From Longimicrobiales bacterium (GTDB lineage: Bacteria; Gemmatimonadota; Gemmatimonadetes; Longimicrobiales; Gaopeijiaceae), in assembly GCA_965115975.1 (NCBI GenBank), contig OZ220468.1:629060-693059 (forward strand): a DNA stretch of 64,000 nucleotides, read 5' to 3'. This document shows, in pieces, positions 3,578 through 63,256 of this stretch. Made by a program: the position numbers and the translations under genes. The notes under the pieces are model-generated. The model was not told where the DNA came from and did no database searches. It was given only the letters and a program-made list of their open reading frames with translations. Positions within the stretch are counted from its first letter, which is position 1. Every line of letters starts with the position of its first letter.

Positions 3578-4516
3578 GTGAGTCTTGGCGAGAACGGGAG
3601 CGTCGACGTCGGCGGCGTCCTGATTCCGGTCACCACGCCGTTCCGTCCCGGCGAAGGCGACCTGGACCGGGCGGCGCTCGCCGCGAACGTGCGGCGGTGG
3701 AGCGGCACCGGCGTGCACGGGCTGGTGGTGGGCGGATCGACCGGCGAGGCCGTGCTCCTGGACGAGGACGAGCGCCTCGCCGCGTTCGAGACCGTCCGCG
3801 ACGCCGCGAGCGACGACCTGACGCTCGTGGCGGGGACCGGAGCCGAGTCCCTGCGCGCCACGATCCGCATGACGAGCCGGGCGGCGTCGCTGGGCTACGA
3901 CGCGGTCCTGGTCCAGCCCCCGGCCTTCTACCGGGGCGCCATGAAGCCGGGCGTCGTCCGGGACCACTACCTCGCCGTCGCCGAGCGCTCCGAGGTCCCG
4001 GTCGTCGTGTACCAGGCGCCGACCCGATTCAGCACGCTGGACCTGCCCACGGGACTGATCGCCGAGCTGTCGGCGCACGAGAACGTCGTCGGCGTCAAGG
4101 ACTCGAGAGGGAAGCTCGAACTCGTGGGCGACCTGCTGACGCAGACGACCGCCGGCTTCCAGGTCCTCGTGGGAAGCGGCGCGATTCTCTACGCCGCTCT
4201 CGAGCTCGGGGCGTCCGGCGGCATCCTGGGCGTCGCGAACCTCGCCCCGGCCCAGTGCGCGTCGATCTTCGAGCTCTTCCGCGCCGGCGACGCTCGAGCC
4301 GCAGGCCGGATCCAGGAGGGGATCGGGCGCCTCCACGACGCCGTCGTCGGCGGCATGGGCGTGGCCGGCGTCAAGCGCGGCCTCGACCTGCTCGGATTCG
4401 GGGGAGGTCTCCCCAGACCTCCCTTGCCGCCGCTGCCCGCCCAGGCGAGCGGGGAGATCGCGGCTCGTCTGCGGGACGCCGGCGTCCGGATCCCGGACGG
4501 TCCGGTCGCCGCTTGA
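3578..4516 (+). CDS. dihydrodipicolinate synthase family class I aldolase (true DapA not certain)
   Basis: GGSTGEAVLL and Schiff-base lysine motif VVGVKDSRGK. GTG start preceded by GGAGG. 312 aa. Confidence 0.8.
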   Translation: MSLGENGSVDVGGVLIPVTTPFRPGEGDLDRAALAANVRRWSGTGVHGLVVGGSTGEAVLLDEDERLAAFETVRDAASDDLTLVAGTGAESLRATIRMTSRAASLGYDAVLVQPPAFYRGAMKPGVVRDHYLAVAERSEVPVVVYQAPTRFSTLDLPTGLIAELSAHENVVGVKDSRGKLELVGDLLTQTTAGFQVLVGSGAILYAALELGASGGILGVANLAPAQCASIFELFRAGDARAAGRIQEGIGRLHDAVVGGMGVAGVKRGLDLLGFGGGLPRPPLPPLPAQASGEIAARLRDAGVRIPDGPVAA

Positions 4517-4527
4517 CGGCGATCGCA

Positions 4528-5814
<1,287 letters not shown>

Positions 5815-5898
5815 CCCGGTCGCCCCTGCGGGCGCCCGGCGGTCGGGCGCCGATCGCACGCGCGTTCTCTCCGGCGGGCGTCGCCCGGGCGGGTTCGG

Positions 5899-7206
5899 GT
5901 GTTTGAGGACCTCAGCCGCAAGCTGGACGGAGTTCTCGGGCGTTTCCGGCAGCGCGGACTCCTCACCGAGCCCATGATCCGGGAGGGCCTTCGCGAGGTG
6001 CGAAGAGCCCTGCTGGAAGCCGACGTCAACTTCCGCGTCACGCGCTCCTTCCTCGCCCGGGTCCAGGAGCGGGCCACGGGGCGCCGCGTGCTCAAGTCCG
6101 TCTCTCCGGGTCAGCAGATCGTGAAGATCGTGCACGACGAGTTGGCCGCCCTGATGGGCGGCGACGGCGATCACCGGCTGCGGTGGTCGCCCGCCCCGCC
6201 GACGGTCGTCATGCTCGTGGGCCTCCAGGGATCCGGCAAGACGTCCACGGCCGCCAAGCTCGCCAAGCGACTGACCCGCCAGGGACGCTCGACGCTGCTC
6301 GCCGCCTGCGACCTGCATCGGCCCGCGGCCGTGGAGCAGCTGCGCGTCCTGGGCGAGCGGGCCCAGGTCGAGGTGCACTTCGAGGAAGGCGCGACCGATC
6401 CGGTCGCCGTCGCGCGGGCGAGTCATCGCCGGGCCCGGCGGACGAAAGCGGGGGCCCTCGTCGTCGACACGGCGGGTCGGCTGCAGGTCGACGAGCCGTT
6501 GATGGACGAATTGGTCCGGCTCAAGGAAGCGCTTCGTCCGCGCGAGATTCTGCTCGTGGCCGACGCGATGACCGGCCAGGAGGCCGTGCGCATCGCCGAG
6601 GGGTTCGACCGCGCGCTCGACCTCACCGGCTTCGTTCTGGCCAAGATGGACGGGGACGCCCGCGGGGGCGCGGCGCTCTCCATCCACGGCGTCACGGGCA
6701 AGCCGCTCAAGTTCGTGGGCACCGGCGAGGGCGTGGATGCCTTGGAAGCGGTGGATCCGCAACGAATTGCGGACCGCATCCTGCAGAAGGGCGATGTGGT
6801 CGGGCTGGTCGAACGGGCTCAAGCCGTCGTGGACGTCGACGACGCGCGGAAGATCCAGGACAAGGTCTTGGGCAAGGGTCGTTTTACCTTGGAGGACTTC
6901 CTGGGCGCCATGCGGCAGGTGCAGAGGATGGGACCGCTGGATCAGCTGATGAAGATGATCCCCGGCCTGGCCCGACGCATGCCCGTTCAGGATGTGGATC
7001 CGAAGAAGCTCAAGCACATCGAGGCGATCATCCTCTCGATGACGCCCGACGAGCGTCGTCGGCCGGAGATTCTCGACGGTTCGCGCCGGAAGCGGATCGC
7101 GCGCGGCAGCGGTCGCCCCGTCCACGAAGTGAATCGCCTGATCAAGCGATTTCGCGAGATGGAGAAGACGCTCAAGAAAATGAAGGGGCTCGTGCCCGGG
7201 ATGTAG
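5899..7206 (+). CDS. ffh: signal recognition particle protein Ffh
   Basis: MFEDLSRKLDGVLGRF N-terminus, GTPase motifs GLQGSGKTSTAAKLA and DTAGRL, Met-rich M domain at the C-terminus. Confidence 0.95.
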   Translation: MFEDLSRKLDGVLGRFRQRGLLTEPMIREGLREVRRALLEADVNFRVTRSFLARVQERATGRRVLKSVSPGQQIVKIVHDELAALMGGDGDHRLRWSPAPPTVVMLVGLQGSGKTSTAAKLAKRLTRQGRSTLLAACDLHRPAAVEQLRVLGERAQVEVHFEEGATDPVAVARASHRRARRTKAGALVVDTAGRLQVDEPLMDELVRLKEALRPREILLVADAMTGQEAVRIAEGFDRALDLTGFVLAKMDGDARGGAALSIHGVTGKPLKFVGTGEGVDALEAVDPQRIADRILQKGDVVGLVERAQAVVDVDDARKIQDKVLGKGRFTLEDFLGAMRQVQRMGPLDQLMKMIPGLARRMPVQDVDPKKLKHIEAIILSMTPDERRRPEILDGSRRKRIARGSGRPVHEVNRLIKRFREMEKTLKKMKGLVPGM

Positions 7207-11160: not shown

Positions 11161-11233
<73 letters not shown>

Positions 11234-35106: not shown

Positions 35107-35825
35107 TCACCCGTCCACGGGCACGGGCCGCAACTTGGCGATCCGCCAAGGCGGCAAGTCGTCCAGGAGCAGATGGAGGAACCTGCCGCCGCCCAAGACC
35201 CTGGACCCCTCGGGAAGGGGCACGTCCTCGTAGAGTTTGACCCCGGTCCGGCGGTCGTAGACCTCCAGAAAAGCGTCGACGGCCTGGAACGCAGGGGCGC
35301 GCGCGGCGTTCATCCTAGATCGGACCAGGATCAGGTACGGCCCGACCGGGGCCAAGAGCGTGACGACGTCGACTCCAGAGACCGCGTCCGCCAGCGCAGT
35401 GCCGTAGCTGCCGAAATCGGAGAACGCACCGGGCTCGAACACCGGAAGCGGCTTGAACGAGGCGGAAGGGGTTCCCAGAACGCCCGCGATCTCTCCCGCC
35501 CCATCGATGACGGTGACCGGATACCTGATTCCCGAGGTCACGAACGTCGAGTCGCCGGCGACCGCGACAGGATAGAACGCGAACGTCTGCCAGTACGGCC
35601 TCTCACTGGTGGTGAACGGGAGTTCGTAACTGCTCCACACCAGGTCCAGGTCTGGAGGGCTCGTCCGGTGGAGGATCGGCGGACGACTGCGAGAAGTCGC
35701 GGTGTGGTCGTACATCATCACGACCAAGTCGGAGCCGAGGGCGAGAACGTCTCTGACGAAGGTCTCCGACGGAAGACCGACAATGGTGTCGGGAGCGAGG
35801 GAAGGAGTCAGATAAGCGAGGCTGT
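35107..35825 (-). pseudogene. C-terminal fragment of IS-disrupted 6-bladed beta-propeller (NHL-like) lipoprotein gene
   Basis: Frame continues from fragment 41639-42022 once the IS and one target duplication are removed (...SNSLAYLT|PSLAPDT...). Confidence 0.8.
35806..35825. repeat. target-site duplication, left copy (AGTCAGATAAGCGAGGC[TGT])
   Basis: Identical 20-mer at 41639-41658. The last 3 nt could instead be the IS terminal TGT, giving a 17-bp duplication. Confidence 0.85.
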
Positions 35826-35829
35826 CGTA

Positions 35830-35845
35830 GCAAAGTAGAAATGTC
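35830..35845 (+). repeat. IS terminal motif GCAAAGTAGAAATGTC, left outer copy (intron-occupied)
   Basis: 16-mer also present at 37854-37869, and as reverse complement at 41590-41605 and 41616-41631. Confidence 0.85.
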
Positions 35846-37835
35846 GTGCGCCGTGGAAAGGCGCCGGTTCCCAGCGGGTGCGAATCCCGTCCGGCAAGGG
35901 TCGTTCCAGCCGGTAGCAACCAGAGCGGGTCGTGGAGGTAACGACATGGCTTGAAGCACTTTGGGTAGACGGACCGCCGTGGGCGGTTCAGCGAACATGC
36001 GGGCCGTAACGCGAGTGAACGCCGAGCAGGCCTCGAAAAGGCTAAGCCGCGGAGGCCGACCCGCCGACATTACGGGGAAGGCTGCCAGCGGTCGGGAAGC
36101 GAACGACGAGAGCACCGACCGCCTCCGCCGGGGTAGTGGCGACGGCACGCATGGAAGAGGGAGGCGGTAGCAACACGGGAAGCCCTGTCGGTGGCGTCGC
36201 GCGGCGCCAACTGGAACCCCGCGAGGGGCAGGCTGGGCCGGCAGGGTGGCGGATGGGCCCGTAGTACTGGAGACGCCGGGTAACGCCGGTCGAGGGAAGG
36301 GGCCCTGCTTCGAGAGCGGTACGGAAAGGGGGAAGGGACGTGACCACTGGCGAGAGCCTACCAGGGTCGGAGAAGGTTCGGAGACTCCAGACCGTGCTAC
36401 ACGCGAAAGCCAAGGAGGAACCTAAAGCGCGGTTCTATACGCTCATCGACAAGGTGTGGCGCGACGATGTTCTCGCGGAAGCCTGGAGGCGGGTACGCCG
36501 CAACGGCGGATCGGCCGGGGTGGACGGAGAGACGTTCGCGGACATCGAGGAGTACGGCGTGGAGCGGTGGCTTGGGGAACTGGCGCGAGATCTGAGGGAG
36601 GGCAGCTATGCGCCGCGAGCGGTGCGGCAGGTGCTGATCCCGAAGAAACAGCCTGGGAAGTACAGGCCGCTGGGCATTCCCTGCATAAGGGACCGGGTGG
36701 CGCAGACGGCGGCGTTGCTGGTGTTGACGCCGATCGTCGAGGCCGATTTGCAACCGGAGCAGTACGCCTATCGGCCGGAGCGGAGCGCGCACGATGCGAT
36801 CCAGCGGGTGCATCGGCTCCTGCACCAGGGGCACAGGGAGGTGGTCGACTGCGACTTGGCCAACTACTTCGGCGAGATACCGCACGCGGAGCTGATGAAG
36901 TGCTTCGCCCGGCGCATCAGCGACGGGCGGATGTTGAAGCTCCTGAAGGCGTGGCTGGAGATGCCGGTGGAGGAGGACGACGGGGAGGGCGGCGTACGTC
37001 GCACGAACCGGGCGCGCAGGGAGAGGAAGGGGACCCCCCAAGGGTCACCGTTCTCGCCGCTGGCCAGCAACCTGTACATGCGGCGATTCGTGCTGGGCTG
37101 GAAGACGCTGGGGTACGCCCAGCGGTTCCGGGCGGAGATCGTGAACTACGCGGACGACCTGTGCGTGGTGAGCAAGGCCCCGGCGGCGGAAGTGCTGGCG
37201 GCGGTCGAGCGACTCATGGAGAGGCTGAAGCTACCGGTCAACGAACGGAAGACTCGATGTCTGCGGTGCCCCGAAGAGGCGTTCGAGTATCTGGGGTACC
37301 GGGTGGGGCGCAACTACCGAGCGAGCGGGCGGGGGTGGTACATCGGGACCCGGCCCAGCAAGGGGAGCGTCCAGGGCATTGTCCGCAAGGTCAGCGAGAT
37401 GACGGCGAAGCGGTACACCGGACTTCCGGTGGAGGTGGTCGTAGAGCGGATCAACCAAGCGGTATACGGGTGGGCGCGCTACTTCAGCCTTGGGCAGGTG
37501 ACCCCTGCGTACCGAGCCGTCAACAAGCACACGGCCAAGCGGTTACGCCGGTGGCTCTGTTCGAAGCACAAGGTGAAGTCCGGGCAACACGCGCGGTTCC
37601 CGGAAGAGAGGCTGAGAGAGCTCGGCCTGTTTTGCCTGACGCGACGGACGATGGGCCTTCCGAAAGCGAAGGCGTGATCTCGTCGGAAAGCCGGATGCGG
37701 GAAAACCGCACGTCCGGTTTGATGGGCGGGGACTGGAAACGCAGCCATGGGAGTCGGCCTTGGAGGCCCGGAGCGAAAGCTACCCGGGATCACCCCACCG
37801 GACCCTAAAGCCGGCGCGCCAGTCCCCGACCCTAC
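35846..37835 (+). mobile_element. group II intron copy 1 (1,990 nt)
   Basis: Starts GUGCG and ends ...CCCUAC. Domain V AGCCGGATGCGGGAAAACCGCACGTCCGGTT at 37689-37719. RT/maturase ORF in domain IV. Candidate EBS1 GACATT at 36066-36071 complements the 5'-exon AATGTC. Confidence 0.85.
36340..37677 (+). CDS. group II intron reverse transcriptase/maturase (no endonuclease domain evident)
   Basis: 445 aa. RT blocks RVRRNGGSAGVDG, IPKKQPGKYRPLGIPCIRDRVAQ, VVDCDLANYFGEIPH, GTPQGSPFSPLASNLYM, YADDLCVV. C-terminal X/maturase WARYFSLG. Confidence 0.92.
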   Translation: MTTGESLPGSEKVRRLQTVLHAKAKEEPKARFYTLIDKVWRDDVLAEAWRRVRRNGGSAGVDGETFADIEEYGVERWLGELARDLREGSYAPRAVRQVLIPKKQPGKYRPLGIPCIRDRVAQTAALLVLTPIVEADLQPEQYAYRPERSAHDAIQRVHRLLHQGHREVVDCDLANYFGEIPHAELMKCFARRISDGRMLKLLKAWLEMPVEEDDGEGGVRRTNRARRERKGTPQGSPFSPLASNLYMRRFVLGWKTLGYAQRFRAEIVNYADDLCVVSKAPAAEVLAAVERLMERLKLPVNERKTRCLRCPEEAFEYLGYRVGRNYRASGRGWYIGTRPSKGSVQGIVRKVSEMTAKRYTGLPVEVVVERINQAVYGWARYFSLGQVTPAYRAVNKHTAKRLRRWLCSKHKVKSGQHARFPEERLRELGLFCLTRRTMGLPKAKA

Positions 37836-37853
37836 CGGTTCTGGGTTGGTTTA

Positions 37854-37869
37854 GCAAAGTAGAAATGTC
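37854..37869 (+). repeat. IS terminal motif, left inner copy (intron-occupied)
   Basis: Identical 16-mer immediately 5' of the second GUGCG. Confidence 0.85.
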
Positions 37870-39859
37870 GTGCGCCGTGGAAAGGCGCCGGTTCCCAGCG
37901 GGTGCGAATCCCGTCCGGCAAGGGTCGTTCCAGCCGGTAGCAACCAGAGCGGGTCGTGGAGGTAACGACATGGCTTGAAGCACTTTGGGTAGACGGACCG
38001 CCGTGGGCGGTTCAGCGAACATGCGGGCCGTAACGCGAGTGAACGCCGAGCAGGCCTCGAAAAGGCTAAGCCGCGGAGGCCGACCCGCCGACATTACGGG
38101 GAAGGCTGCCAGCGGTCGGGAAGCGAACGACGAGAGCACCGACCGCCTCCGCCGGGGTAGTGGCGACGGCACGCATGGAAGAGGGAGGCGGTAGCAACAC
38201 GGGAAGCCCTGTCGGTGGCGTCGCGCGGCGCCAACTGGAACCCCGCGAGGGGCAGGCTGGGCCGGCAGGGTGGCGGATGGGCCCGTAGTACTGGAGACGC
38301 CGGGTAACGCCGGTCGAGGGAAGGGGCCCTGCTTCGAGAGCGGTACGGAAAGGGGGAAGGGACGTGACCACTGGCGAGAGCCTACCAGGGTCGGAGAAGG
38401 TTCGGAGACTCCAGACCGTGCTACACGCGAAAGCCAAGGAGGAACCTAAAGCGCGGTTCTATACGCTCATCGACAAGGTGTGGCGCGACGATGTTCTCGC
38501 GGAAGCCTGGAGGCGGGTACGCCGCAACGGCGGATCGGCCGGGGTGGACGGAGAGACGTTCGCGGACATCGAGGAGTACGGCGTGGAGCGGTGGCTTGGG
38601 GAACTGGCGCGAGATCTGAGGGAGGGCAGCTATGCGCCGCGAGCGGTGCGGCAGGTGCTGATCCCGAAGAAACAGCCTGGGAAGTACAGGCCGCTGGGCA
38701 TTCCCTGCATAAGGGACCGGGTGGCGCAGACGGCGGCGTTGCTGGTGTTGACGCCGATCGTCGAGGCCGATTTGCAACCGGAGCAGTACGCCTATCGGCC
38801 GGAGCGGAGCGCGCACGATGCGATCCAGCGGGTGCATCGGCTCCTGCACCAGGGGCACAGGGAGGTGGTCGACTGCGACTTGGCCAACTACTTCGGCGAG
38901 ATACCGCACGCGGAGCTGATGAAGTGCTTCGCCCGGCGCATCAGCGACGGGCGGATGTTGAAGCTCCTGAAGGCGTGGCTGGAGATGCCGGTGGAGGAGG
39001 ACGACGGGGAGGGCGGCGTACGTCGCACGAACCGGGCGCGCAGGGAGAGGAAGGGGACCCCCCAAGGGTCACCGTTCTCGCCGCTGGCCAGCAACCTGTA
39101 CATGCGGCGATTCGTGCTGGGCTGGAAGACGCTGGGGTACGCCCAGCGGTTCCGGGCGGAGATCGTGAACTACGCGGACGACCTGTGCGTGGTGAGCAAG
39201 GCCCCGGCGGCGGAAGTGCTGGCGGCGGTCGAGCGACTCATGGAGAGGCTGAAGCTACCGGTCAACGAACGGAAGACTCGATGTCTGCGGTGCCCCGAAG
39301 AGGCGTTCGAGTATCTGGGGTACCGGGTGGGGCGCAACTACCGAGCGAGCGGGCGGGGGTGGTACATCGGGACCCGGCCCAGCAAGGGGAGCGTCCAGGG
39401 CATTGTCCGCAAGGTCAGCGAGATGACGGCGAAGCGGTACACCGGACTTCCGGTGGAGGTGGTCGTAGAGCGGATCAACCAAGCGGTATACGGGTGGGCG
39501 CGCTACTTCAGCCTTGGGCAGGTGACCCCTGCGTACCGAGCCGTCAACAAGCACACGGCCAAGCGGTTACGCCGGTGGCTCTGTTCGAAGCACAAGGTGA
39601 AGTCCGGGCAACACGCGCGGTTCCCGGAAGAGAGGCTGAGAGAGCTCGGCCTGTTTTGCCTGACGCGACGGACGATGGGCCTTCCGAAAGCGAAGGCGTG
39701 ATCTCGTCGGAAAGCCGGATGCGGGAAAACCGCACGTCCGGTTTGATGGGCGGGGACTGGAAACGCAGCCATGGGAGTCGGCCTTGGAGGCCCGGAGCGA
39801 AAGCTACCCGGGATCACCCCACCGGACCCTAAAGCCGGCGCGCCAGTCCCCGACCCTAC
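37870..39859 (+). mobile_element. group II intron copy 2 (1,990 nt, apparently identical to copy 1)
   Basis: Sequence repeats copy 1 with a period of 2,024 nt (1,990-nt intron + 34-nt spacer). All track ORFs inside recur with identical translations. Confidence 0.85.
38364..39701 (+). CDS. group II intron reverse transcriptase/maturase (copy 2)
   Basis: Translation identical to 36340-37677. Confidence 0.92.
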   Translation: MTTGESLPGSEKVRRLQTVLHAKAKEEPKARFYTLIDKVWRDDVLAEAWRRVRRNGGSAGVDGETFADIEEYGVERWLGELARDLREGSYAPRAVRQVLIPKKQPGKYRPLGIPCIRDRVAQTAALLVLTPIVEADLQPEQYAYRPERSAHDAIQRVHRLLHQGHREVVDCDLANYFGEIPHAELMKCFARRISDGRMLKLLKAWLEMPVEEDDGEGGVRRTNRARRERKGTPQGSPFSPLASNLYMRRFVLGWKTLGYAQRFRAEIVNYADDLCVVSKAPAAEVLAAVERLMERLKLPVNERKTRCLRCPEEAFEYLGYRVGRNYRASGRGWYIGTRPSKGSVQGIVRKVSEMTAKRYTGLPVEVVVERINQAVYGWARYFSLGQVTPAYRAVNKHTAKRLRRWLCSKHKVKSGQHARFPEERLRELGLFCLTRRTMGLPKAKA

Positions 39860-39912
39860 CTCTTTCGGATGGTCTTCGGTGGTTCACGCAACCCGATCCG
39901 GGAGAGGAGCAG

Positions 39913-41223
39913 ATGGAACTCAGTTTGAAGGAGCGCGACCGCGTGTCGGTGCTGAGGCAGGTGAGCGAAGGGGTGCTGACGGCGTCTGCGGGCGCCCGGC
40001 GCATCGGCGTCACGCCGCGTCACTTCCGACGCTTGCTGCGGCGGTTCGAGGCGGAAGGCGACGCCGTCGCGGTCCACGGGCTTCGAGGTCGGGCCTCGAA
40101 CCGGGCGTTGCCTCCAGAGGTTCGCCAGGCGGTGCTGGCGCTCGCGGAGGATCCGATGTTCCGCGACTTCGGACCGACGCTGCTCGCCGAACACGTCGAG
40201 CTGGCGTGCGGGCTGCGGGTGAGTCGGGAGACGGTGCGGCGCTGGTTGCTGGAGTCCGGGTTGCGGACGCGCAGTCGCAAGCGGGCGAAGCACCGGAGTC
40301 GGCGTCCCCGCCGGGCGGCGCTGGGGGAGTTGGCGCAGTGGGACAGCTCGGTGCATCGGTGGCTCGAGGATCGCGTCGAGGGCGACCTGACGCTGATCGC
40401 GCTCCACGACGACGCGACGAGCCGTCTGATGGCGGCCCGGTTCGTGGCCCGCGACAACGGGGCGGAGAACCGGCGCGTGATCATCGACTACCTGCGGCGT
40501 CACGGTCGGCCCTTGGCGGTGTACACGGACCACGCGGGCCACTTCGGGCAGTGGCAGTCGGAGAAGGAGAAGCGAACGGATACGATCATCTCGAAGGCGT
40601 TGGGCGAACTGGACATCGGGCTGATCCTGGCCAGCTCTCCGCAGGCCAAGGGGCGCGTCGAGCGCACCTTCGGGACGGCGCAGGACCGGCTGATCAAGGA
40701 GATGCGCCTCGCGCGGATCTCGGATCTCGAGAAGGCGAACGAGTTCCTCGAGGAGTACTGGGCGCCGCTGTGGAACGAACGGTTCGCGACGGCGCCTGCG
40801 GAGGCGCGCGACGCGCACCGTCCGTTGCCGGCGGGGGTGGATCTGGACGCTCTGTTCGCGGAGACGGTGGTCCGCAAGGTCGCTCGGGACTTCACGATCC
40901 GCTTCAAGAACGAGCTCTGGCAGATCCCGGAGCACGAAGCTACGGACTTGGCGCCCGGCGCTGAGATCGTGGTCGAACGGCGGTTGGACGGCGAACTGCG
41001 CTTCCGCAGTGGGTCCCGGTACCTGGACGTCGAGTCGCTGGGCTGTGCGCGAAGCCGCCCGAAAGCTCCGGCGCAGCCCGCCGAAGAGAAGACCCCGAAG
41101 CCGCTCGGCAAGCCGCCGAAGCCAGGCTCGGGCCACCCGTGGCGCCTCCGGATCCAAGCGGAAGTGCAGCGCGCGCTGGCCAGGCGGAAGCGGCGCGAGG
41201 AACGGGGTCGAAGCGACGAGTGA
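39913..41223 (+). CDS. DDE (rve-type integrase core) transposase with N-terminal HTH
   Basis: MELSLKERDRVSVLRQV...RRIGVTPRHFRRLL HTH. Catalytic-core landmarks LAQWDSSVHRW, VYTDHAGHF, SPQAKGRVERTFGTAQDRL. ATG39913 inside track ORF 39784-41223. Confidence 0.85.
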   Translation: MELSLKERDRVSVLRQVSEGVLTASAGARRIGVTPRHFRRLLRRFEAEGDAVAVHGLRGRASNRALPPEVRQAVLALAEDPMFRDFGPTLLAEHVELACGLRVSRETVRRWLLESGLRTRSRKRAKHRSRRPRRAALGELAQWDSSVHRWLEDRVEGDLTLIALHDDATSRLMAARFVARDNGAENRRVIIDYLRRHGRPLAVYTDHAGHFGQWQSEKEKRTDTIISKALGELDIGLILASSPQAKGRVERTFGTAQDRLIKEMRLARISDLEKANEFLEEYWAPLWNERFATAPAEARDAHRPLPAGVDLDALFAETVVRKVARDFTIRFKNELWQIPEHEATDLAPGAEIVVERRLDGELRFRSGSRYLDVESLGCARSRPKAPAQPAEEKTPKPLGKPPKPGSGHPWRLRIQAEVQRALARRKRREERGRSDE

Positions 41224-41465
41224 GCAGGCAGCCACGCCGTTCTTCCCCCTCGCCGGGGGGGATCGGACAGGCGCTCGACGCGCCTGAACACAACCCCTCG
41301 CGGGGCAGCCCCGAACCGCCCGCACCGCATGCACGGCGGCCTCGTACGGACGTTCGACGGCGCAGATCGGCCCGCAGGCACCGCTTCTCCGCACACACAT
41401 TCGCCAAGGACAGCGGGTCCCAGGGCGTCCAGACAGGCAACGGGAGCGGTCGGCCGGCCGCTCCC

Positions 41466-41520
41466 GGGCCCTGGCGCCTCGCTTCGGTCGCTCCGCTCCC
41501 TGCGCGAGGCGCCAGGGCCC
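41466..41520. other. 17-bp perfect inverted repeat (hairpin) in the IS right arm
   Basis: GGGCCCTGGCGCCTCGC (41466-41482) and GCGAGGCGCCAGGGCCC (41504-41520), 21-nt loop. Confidence 0.7.
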
Positions 41521-41589
41521 GCGCATCCCAGAAGACGTGGAACGCTGTCGCAACCCGCTACCCCCAACCCCAAGACCGGTCCCCAGGCG

Positions 41590-41605
41590 GACATTTCTAC
41601 TTTGC
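41590..41605 (-). repeat. IS terminal motif, right inner copy (empty intron site)
   Basis: gacatttctactttgc is the reverse complement of GCAAAGTAGAAATGTC. Confidence 0.85.
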
Positions 41606-41615
41606 TCGCCCCCCG

Positions 41616-41631
41616 GACATTTCTACTTTGC
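41616..41631 (-). repeat. IS terminal motif, right outer copy (empty intron site)
   Basis: gacatttctactttgc, 7 nt from the IS end. Confidence 0.85.
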
Positions 41632-41638
41632 GTTGACA

Positions 41639-41658
41639 AGTCAGATAAGCGAGGCTGT
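41639..41658. repeat. target-site duplication, right copy
   Basis: Identical to 35806-35825. Confidence 0.85.
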
Positions 41659-42022
41659 TGCTGCGAGAGCTCAAGACCACGACCTTCCCGGAAGCGGATT
41701 CCGCCAAGCCCGTGATCCGCTGGAACTCGAAGGGTCCTTCCCCGAATTGTCCGAAGCTGGCCTCCAGGCGTCCCTCGTCGTCGTAGCTTCGCACGCGAGG
41801 TAGAAGCCGGTCGGCGATCAAATAGCCGCCGCCGCTACGCTCGACGAACCGGCCGATCTCGGCGATCGAGTCGGAGGGGTCTTCGCCGAGCGCCACGACG
41901 GACTCGGTGGCGAACGCCTCCGCGAGCGTCGCCGAGACGGGCAACGGGACGGGGGCCTCCCTCTCCCCGCAGGCGGCGAGAAGGAGGGCCGCCAAGAGAG
42001 GAGAGGGCCGGGCGGACCGCAC
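41639..42022 (-). pseudogene. N-terminal fragment of IS-disrupted 6-bladed beta-propeller lipoprotein gene
   Basis: GTG42022 gives MRSARPSPLLAALLLAACGE (lipobox). NHL-like FGQFGEGPFEFQRITGLA. The reading frame runs into the IS right end and stops. Confidence 0.8.
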
Positions 42023-42039
42023 TACTGCCTCGCCAATCA

Positions 42040-42297
42040 CTATTTGCGTTCCACAACCACCACGATCCCTTCCAGGCAGCAAATCTCCTCGTTGGTGTCG
42101 CACATCGGGCCTTCGCAGGGATGCCCGGGGCCCGGCGTCCCCTCGCCGTCATGGCAGTAGGGGTCGGCCTCGACGTCGCACTCGCCACCACCGTCGGCGA
42201 CGACCGACTCGGTGCCCACCACGCCGACGCCCACCGCCAACGCAACCGCCAGGATCAGCGCGGCGGCGAAACGGATCAGATTTGCGACGATCTCCAT
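42040..42297 (-). CDS. small acidic six-cysteine secreted/membrane-anchored protein
   Basis: 85 aa. Hydrophobic N-terminus LIRFAAALILAVALAVGVGVVG. Then Cys at 40, 48, 61, 66, 73 and 74 in a D/E/G/P-rich 35-residue stretch. Stop lies 17 nt before the propeller start. Confidence 0.6.
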   Translation of the reverse strand: MEIVANLIRFAAALILAVALAVGVGVVGTESVVADGGGECDVEADPYCHDGEGTPGPGHPCEGPMCDTNEEICCLEGIVVVVERK

Positions 42298-63182: not shown

Positions 63183-63256
63183 TCGGGACGGCCGGATTCG
63201 AACCGGCGACCCCCTGAACCCCATTCAGGTGCGCTACCGGACTGCGCCACGTCCCG
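63183..63256 (-). tRNA. tRNA-Pro (anticodon GGG)
   Basis: Hand-folded 74-nt cloverleaf. Acceptor CGGGACG/CGTCCCG, D arm GCGC-AGTCCGGTA-GCGC, anticodon arm CCTGA-ATGGGGT-TCAGG, T arm GCCGG-TTCGAAT-CCGGC. Confidence 0.9.

Follow-up and report, generated by a model that had tools for sequence, protein, structure and literature searches.

Two identical group II introns in the left-end repeats of an ISTde1-type insertion sequence from a Longimicrobiales bacterium

The locus and its insertion sequence

The window analysed here is a stretch of 64,000 nucleotides from a Longimicrobiales bacterium of the phylum Gemmatimonadota (assembly GCA_965115975.1, contig OZ220468.1, positions 629,060 to 693,059), and all the coordinates given without a locus name refer to it. 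It contains an insertion sequence (IS) of the IS1202 family, ISTde1-type, with TGTC...GACA ends, which occupies positions 35823-41638 on the plus strand and carries in its left end two identical group II introns, each located directly after a copy of the same IS end repeat. The whole element contains 5,816 bp and is reduced to 1,836 bp after removing both introns.

The IS is flanked by a perfect 17-bp target-site duplication, AGTCAGATAAGCGAGGC (left copy 35806-35822, right copy 41639-41655), and interrupts a minus-strand open reading frame (ORF), doubling the peptide SLAYLT. The interrupted gene lies in two parts, 35107-35822 and 41656-42103, and the rebuilt protein of about 387 aa has a lipoprotein-like N-terminus and gave no match in Pfam and NCBIfam searches. 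The transposase gene (39913-41223, plus strand) codes for a protein of 436 aa with an N-terminal helix-turn-helix (HTH) part and a DDE-type ISNCY/IS1202 catalytic region; it scores 338.7 bits with NF033594 transpos_ISNCY_2 (cut-off 250, the model being covered from 2 to 356 of 368) and also matches HTH_32/29/23/28. The source genome harbors at least one further copy of the IS, whose transposase shares 432 of 436 residues with that of the window (P0121/P0242, 99% identical versions).

The 16-mer GCAAAGTAGAAATGTC is found exactly four times in the window, at 35830-35845 and 37854-37869 on the plus strand and at 41590-41605 and 41616-41631 on the minus strand, with none expected in 100 shuffles even with 2 mismatches. 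At the left end of the IS the repeat extends to the 18-nt version TAGCAAAGTAGAAATGTC: the outer-left repeat (35828-35845, plus strand) forms the 5′ exon of intron copy 1 and ends with the sequence AATGTC (35840-35845), and the inner-left repeat (37852-37869, plus strand) forms the 5′ exon of intron copy 2. Between the two introns there is a 34-nt segment of the IS (37836-37869, plus strand) which starts with the 3′ exon of copy 1 (C...) and continues into the inner-left repeat. Both right-end repeats are empty and are read on the minus strand: the inner-right one (41590-41605) as GAGCAAAGTAGAAATGTC and the outer-right one (41616-41631) as ACGCAAAGTAGAAATGTC, each followed by C. The four copies thus stand where the original prediction, a reading of the sequence made before any database search, had put them, two direct occupied copies on the left and two inverted empty ones on the right, and so does the 34-nt spacer. 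The distance from the IS tip (35823) to the transposase ATG (39913), estimated there at about 4 kb, is 4,090 nt (about 4.1 kb), compared to about 110 nt without the introns.

Two identical group II introns

The segments 35846-37835 (copy 1) and 37870-39859 (copy 2), both on the plus strand and 1,990 nt long, are 100% identical in a pairwise comparison, the identity running on for 18 nt upstream (TAGCAAAGTAGAAATGTC) and 1 nt downstream (C). Each copy matches the Rfam families RF02003 group-II-D1D4-4 (89.7 bits, gathering score 49) and RF00029 Intron_gpII, covering domains V and VI (43.7 bits, gathering score 40), and has GTGCG at the 5′ end and CTAC at the 3′ end. The domain V hairpin (37688-37720, in copy 2 39712-39744, plus strand), supported by both Rfam and folding, is about 34 nt long and possesses the AGC triad and a 2-nt bulge. 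Domain VI has a single bulged branch-point A (37829, in copy 2 39853, plus strand) 7 nt from the 3′ splice site; it is unusually long, about 110 nt (37724-37832, in copy 2 39748-39856), and contains a large insertion that separates its basal helix from its tip; the same layout is seen in related introns. Both segments are group II introns with conserved ribozyme domains.

Domain IV of each copy contains a gene coding for an intron-encoded protein (IEP) of 445 aa (36340-37677, in copy 2 38364-39701, plus strand) with reverse transcriptase (RT, YADD) and maturase/X domains, identified by Pfam matches to RVT_1 (2.6e-34) and GIIM (4.6e-14) and by TIGR04416, the group II RT/maturase equivalog (325 bits, cut-off 300). 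The GIIM match stops at residue 416, leaving 29 residues, and a domain search detected no DNA-binding/endonuclease module after domain X, so the IEP is devoid of this module. The solved structures nearest to it in a PDB sequence search are group II RTs, with GsI-IIC RT at the top (4.7e-46), and the protein database returned nothing more than 84% identical. The C-terminal motif of ORF class D, LX3AX3PXLF[V/A]HW (PMC4615759), was not found in the IEP, which ends with ...ARFPEERLRELGLFCLTRRTMGLPKAKA, so that by this motif it would not belong to class D. The PDB, a tblastn search of plasmids and the scheme of Toro & Martinez-Abarca 2013 led to nothing beyond "not class D by motif", so that of the class assignment proposed earlier, C-like class included, only this exclusion was obtained.

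The remaining parts of the first description were seen in full: alignment, Rfam and Pfam/NCBIfam gave the two identical 1,990-nt introns with GUGCG, domain V, CUAC and an RT/maturase ORF, the proposed check by folding and Rfam models found the conserved domains in place, and the junctions with GCAAAGTAGAAATGTC on one side and C on the other are exact. From the identical copies at cognate sites and the intact ORF we infer that the intron would be active in splicing and retrohoming.

The IS family and the origin of the tandem

A genome scan yielded 55 loci with related transposases, mostly of 60-72% identity, nearly all of them from Longimicrobiales, Gemmatimonadota or Candidatus Palauibacter metagenome-assembled genomes. 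These IS relatives are 1.4-1.9 kb long (1.5-1.87 kb where the duplication is intact) and have TGTC...ACA ends and duplications mostly of 17 bp, ranging from 16 to 18; about 40 share the IS design with 16-18 bp duplications. Nearly every relative has two copies of ..TAGAAATGTC per end, spaced by 24 or 34 nt on the left and by 26 nt on the right, and the 34-nt left spacing of the window IS is also present in the intron-free relatives L046 and L047. The exact core TAGAAATGTC occurs 187 times in the 55 loci with C following in 187/187 cases, and no intron was found after it in any of the 187 copies. The repeated end-motif is therefore a real conserved feature of this IS family, just as the original prediction had taken it to be the terminal motif of the surrounding IS, and presumably binds the transposase, which is a reasonable suggestion.

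These intron-free relatives also bear on whether the tandem is an assembly artefact or arose by duplication without homing, for instance by unequal crossing-over at the 18-nt repeats of an IS with a single intron. Such an origin would fit the 100% identity of the two 2-kb copies and the 18-nt direct repeat that precedes both of them, and the tandem is known from the assembly only. However, beyond the 18 nt upstream and the first 3′ base the flanks differ and match the outer and inner contexts of the intron-free relatives, respectively, and excising both introns restores a canonical left end with the 34-nt spacing of L046/L047. Unequal crossing-over predicts a third repeat and a duplicated spacer after copy 2, instead of which the normal ...GTC followed by CTCTTTCGG is seen, as in the relatives and in the intron-bearing locus L001 described below, so crossing-over is ruled out by the junction sequences and an artefactual or duplicative origin as a whole appears very improbable.

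Several other features of the IS family were observed. The right terminus of the window IS (41633-41638) is TTGACA, a perfect outward-facing -35 hexamer, and the same is true of nearly all relatives (L003-L050); left ends in the family read TGTCGT or TGTCGC, and the end repeat contains TAGAAAT (35836-35842), resembling a -10 box. A sigma-70 promoter scan of 35600-41800 found no promoter, and TTGACA and TAGAAAT could form a junction promoter in an IS circle or dimer. Tandem IS dimers are present in two related genomes (L007 6763-10236 and L025 6898-9947), with a spacer of the target-duplication length; in L007 the duplication and the IS alternate, giving three copies of a 17/18-nt sequence around two ISs. 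Such an arrangement suggests that one target was hit repeatedly or that a dimer served as an intermediate. The IS copy in L041 (3468-8169) is 4.7 kb long owing to an internal insert of about 3 kb, which has neither an Rfam group II match nor similarity to the window intron.

Target recognition

To define the pairing between the intron and its target, related introns were drawn from 80 metagenome loci together with L001, L002 and L035, giving 39 non-redundant intron/exon pairs. The GACATT at 36066-36071, named in the original prediction as a candidate for exon-binding site 1 (EBS1), turned out to be correctly placed. EBS1 GACAUU (36066-36071, in copy 2 38090-38095, plus strand) pairs with intron-binding site 1 (IBS1) AAUGUC, and at least 5 of the 6 positions pair in 34 of the 39 cognate pairs compared to 7.4% of non-cognate ones. 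There are 27 different EBS1 hexamers among the related introns, L002 with GACAAT after ...ATTGTC being an example of the covariation. Intron nucleotide 291, G in the window (36136, in copy 2 38160, plus strand), corresponds to EBS3 and pairs with the first 3′-exon base, C: it covaries with position +1, being Watson-Crick in 19 of 22 sequences and wobble in 2 more, which identifies EBS3, as had been proposed for checking, and marks the intron as IIB-like. Both the EBS1-IBS1 and EBS3-IBS3 pairings are proven by covariation in related introns.

In the family EBS2 lies in the loop of the hairpin preceding EBS1, and from loop offset 3 it pairs with positions -14 to -10 of the 5′ exon; 16 of the 39 cognate pairs match at 4 or more of the 5 positions in this register, compared to 11% of non-cognate controls. 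The loop of the window intron and of L001 is 2 nt longer than in all other relatives (about 40) and contains GCUA(A/G)G. In the window the tentative EBS2-like loop GCUAAG (36041-36046, in copy 2 38065-38070, plus strand) is complementary to (U)UUAGC at -20 to -15, and such a shifted pairing with (Y)UUAGC would comprise 6 bp in copy 2 and L001, and 4 contiguous bp (5 of 6 positions) in copy 1.

All three occupied sites, two in the window and one in L001, have TAGC at -18 to -15, and the target proposed for testing is TAGC-N8-AATGTC, then C at +1. The same four positions read ACGC and GAGC in the empty right-end repeats of the window, and TGCC in the empty outer repeat of L001. With these differing bases the four window repeats are not equivalent targets, so the right-end copies, earlier regarded as empty sites of the same kind, are indeed empty, but lie on the opposite strand and carry ACGC/GAGC instead of TAGC.

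TA(G/A)C at about -16 to -12 is a frequent element in the targets of related introns, regardless of IBS1/IBS2, and is present for example in the 5′ exons of L035, L064, L098, L103, L108, L114, L116, L121, L122 and L127. It recalls the protein-read T-15 of the rhizobial intron RmInt1. The TAGC of the window and L001 sits 2-3 nt further upstream, alongside the EBS2 loop being 2 nt longer.

Other occupied and empty sites

The locus L001, from a different assembled chromosome, contains an intron 87% identical to that of the window and with the same EBS1. Its host is a related IS, in which it occupies the inner-left repeat and has the same CTCTTTCGG after it, while the outer repeat is empty. Without the intron, the L001 IS shows 74% identity to the window IS but 95% to L138, another IS of its own genome in which both left-end repeats are empty. 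The L001 IS thus being nearer to its own intron-free neighbor than to the window IS, independent homing is indicated, and the idea that the window and L001 inherited IS and intron together was rejected on these identities (IS 74%, intron 87%, L001 IS and L138 95%). The simplest reading is that the intron lineage entered the repeat separately in two diverged IS lineages, making three insertions in all.

The same comparison applies to the suggestion that an IS already carrying one or both introns transposed to the present position, IS and intron moving as a composite element. The intact 17-bp target duplication and full-length transposase ORF would permit this, the second IS copy of the source genome has a 99% identical transposase and may or may not contain an intron, and it is also the inner-left site that is occupied in L001. 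Against it, the left-end repeats of the loaded IS are 2 kb apart compared to 24 or 34 nt in about 50 relatives, occupied repeats number 0 in the 55 related loci, and the L001 IS is closest to an intron-free copy. Transposition as a composite is therefore regarded as distinctly unlikely.

Outside this sub-lineage, most metagenomic copies of related introns lie in unrelated sequences. The L002 intron (4456-6439), 85% identical to that of the window, is inside a decayed IS1634-family transposase gene (NF033559, E = 1e-10) and represents a further IS-borne target of the same intron family. The specificity for IS ends is confined to the sub-lineage of the window and L001 introns, close relatives using other targets; the claim that the intron homes into the ends of an IS has gained a third, apparently independent event but does not extend to those relatives.

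It could also be supposed that the insertions are opportunistic (ectopic) hits on a match to EBS1 and EBS3, in which case the lineage would not be adapted to IS ends and the repeat would not be where it naturally homes. The proven pairing covers only 6+1 nt, relatives with other EBS1 sequences are present in many unrelated targets, the junction pattern TAGAAATGTCGTGYGCCGYGG gave 0 matches in the JGI metagenomes, and 187/187 repeats in related genomes are empty. This is opposed by the repeat having been entered three separate times in two genomes, by the EBS1 common to the window and L001 introns and their 2-nt longer EBS2 loop, the latter being unique to these two among about 40, and by the identity of both window sites, which reaches -18 and includes TAGC. 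Ectopic insertion is for these reasons thought unlikely, though less so than transposition as a composite.

At L139/L042 (6115-7809) a truncated IS with 87% nucleotide identity to the window IS borders directly on what is left of a related intron, inverted and with an internal deletion, in a region that is a graveyard of IS3, IS110 and IS21 fragments; it was rejected as a third association of IS and intron, as the 3′ exon of the remnant is not an IS end. At L097 (1-3001) two distinct but related introns, with 93.7% identity over 1,007 nt, form a true head-to-tail pair that has no spacer. The downstream intron is 99.95% identical to the L098 intron, which occupies its cognate target, and EBS3 in L097 is U, fitting the head-to-tail route proposed for RmInt2, another rhizobial intron.

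The rest of the window is made up of genes for proteins of an ordinary chromosomal kind, among them an S9 peptidase, CarboxypepD_reg repeats, a sortilin/BNR protein and a xylose-isomerase-like TIM barrel, and two tRNA genes detected with Rfam (11161-11233 on the plus strand and 63183-63256 on the minus strand). The GC content of the window is 70%.

Proposed explanation and its consequences

Taken together, the data are best explained by an endonuclease-less IIB-like intron having homed into both left-end repeats of an ISTde1-type IS, a reading to which we give a probability of roughly 85%. We infer a replication-fork mechanism with a strand bias and a role for the distal element, as follows. 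An ISTde1-type element of the IS1202 family, with two ..TAGAAATGTC repeats per end, each followed by C, is present in a chromosomal gene and would have been met by a mobile intron recognizing the left-end version of the repeat, TAGCAAAGTAGAAATGTC followed by C. Recognition would involve EBS1 GACAUU with IBS1 AAUGUC, EBS3 G with C at +1, and the distal TAGC at -18 to -15, which may be read either by the EBS2-like loop GCUAAG or by the IEP. The intron would be reverse-spliced into the plus strand and then copied into DNA, once per left-end repeat, leaving identical introns 34 nt apart.

There are two likely reasons for the right-end repeats being empty. They are located on the other strand, probably the leading-strand template, which would be disfavoured by endonuclease-less introns, and they do not have the distal T-18/A-17. 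With regard to the former, the GC skew of the plus strand outside the IS is +0.032 and positive in 13 of 14 bins, so the plus strand is probably the lagging-strand template; the sites with introns would then probably belong to the lagging template, and the right-end sites, which are empty, to the leading one.

A number of observations weigh against this explanation. The outer-left site of L138 has TAGC, AATGTC and C and yet is empty in a genome with a matching intron, and of the 187 repeats that are empty in other loci 49 also have TAGC; homing falls far short of saturation. The window intron and L001 form only 2 of 5 pairs in the family EBS2 register, and the shifted pairing proposed instead could be due to chance. 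The GC skew of the short L001 flanks is slightly negative (-0.027), and since its sign is opposite, the strand-bias argument is weak. Finally, the tandem arrangement itself is read from the assembly sequence alone.

As for the IS, its outer-left repeat is still at the tip, but the otherwise invariant C that follows is now G, and the inner-left repeat has been displaced by 2 kb by copy 1. Splicing could restore the RNA but not the DNA end, so the loaded IS is probably impaired. A more speculative suggestion, which at present seems doubtful rather than likely, is that the intron sub-lineage is a dedicated hyperparasite of ISTde1-type ISs in Gemmatimonadota, retuned to the repeated end-motif and disabling the IS. 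Retuning would have occurred via EBS1, EBS3 and either the EBS2 loop expanded by 2 nt or an IEP contact shifted to -18 to -15, and loading both repeats of one end would block the IS at the DNA level beyond repair by splicing, as a natural brake.

In a phylum that has received little attention, the locus offers a clear case from nature of mobile elements nested in one another. It reveals two conserved repeats per end in the ISTde1-type elements of Gemmatimonadota and provides a testable target for which EBS1 and EBS3 are mapped. Should the loaded IS be unable to move, such introns would act as a DNA-level brake on IS spread, and the mapped recognition rules could help to retarget a very widespread intron family. 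Current understanding is not overturned by these results.

Comparison with known systems

Group IIC introns, which insert at terminators or attC sites, also have no endonuclease domain and are tied to other mobile platforms. The window intron resembles them in having no endonuclease and in its nearest structure by sequence, GsI-IIC RT, but differs in the 6-bp EBS1, the family EBS2 and EBS3, and a target that is not a stem-loop, and is for these reasons considered IIB-like and not IIC.

The host element agrees well with the ISTde1 subgroup as described by Siguier et al. (bioRxiv 10.1101/2022.12.17.520857), which has TGT termini, direct repeats of 15-17 bp, a transposase with HTH and DDE parts and a conserved second inverted-repeat domain around position 20, and occurs in Gemmatimonadetes. 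The window IS shares all of these features, with its TGT ends, a 17-bp duplication, the HTH and DDE transposase, the inverted-repeat domain near position 20 and a host from the same phylum, whereas a word search of that text found no second internal copy of the motif per end, and intron cargo is not described in it.

RmInt1 in ISRm2011-2 (IS630 family) of Sinorhizobium meliloti is the standard case of an intron in an IS (PMC5894124), and was proposed to restrain IS spread (PMC4615759, PMC5894124). It is found largely in one IS family, has a target from about -20 to +5 with a distal T-15, has no endonuclease domain and prefers the lagging template, all of which has a counterpart, proven or putative, in the window intron. 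It differs in being located in the transposase coding region and not in the terminal repeats, in belonging to class D, and in its host, a member of the Alphaproteobacteria.

The closest parallel is RmInt2 from S. meliloti GR4, for which the ISRm17 inverted repeats serve as homing sites (Martinez-Rodriguez et al. 2014, PMC4615759). It is likewise an endonuclease-less IIB-type intron with its natural target inside IS terminal repeats and sites on both strands, the one on the lagging template being favoured, and it was argued in that work that with inverted repeats an IS will always offer one site on the lagging template (PMC4615759). A group II intron that homes into inverted repeats of an IS has thus already been published, and the double occupancy described here is unusual without amounting to a new principle. 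RmInt2 belongs to ORF class D, whereas the window IEP does not have the class D C-terminal motif, and the host elements (ISRm17 and an IS1202/ISTde1 element) and phyla are different, so that class D introns of rhizobia are not alone in targeting the terminal repeats of an IS. Head-to-tail double insertions were also obtained in the RmInt2 assays (PMC4615759); these are spacerless and were attributed to pairing of EBS3 U with intron G1, whereas in the window EBS3 is G and the two copies are inserted in two separate direct repeats of the same IS end, 34 nt apart.

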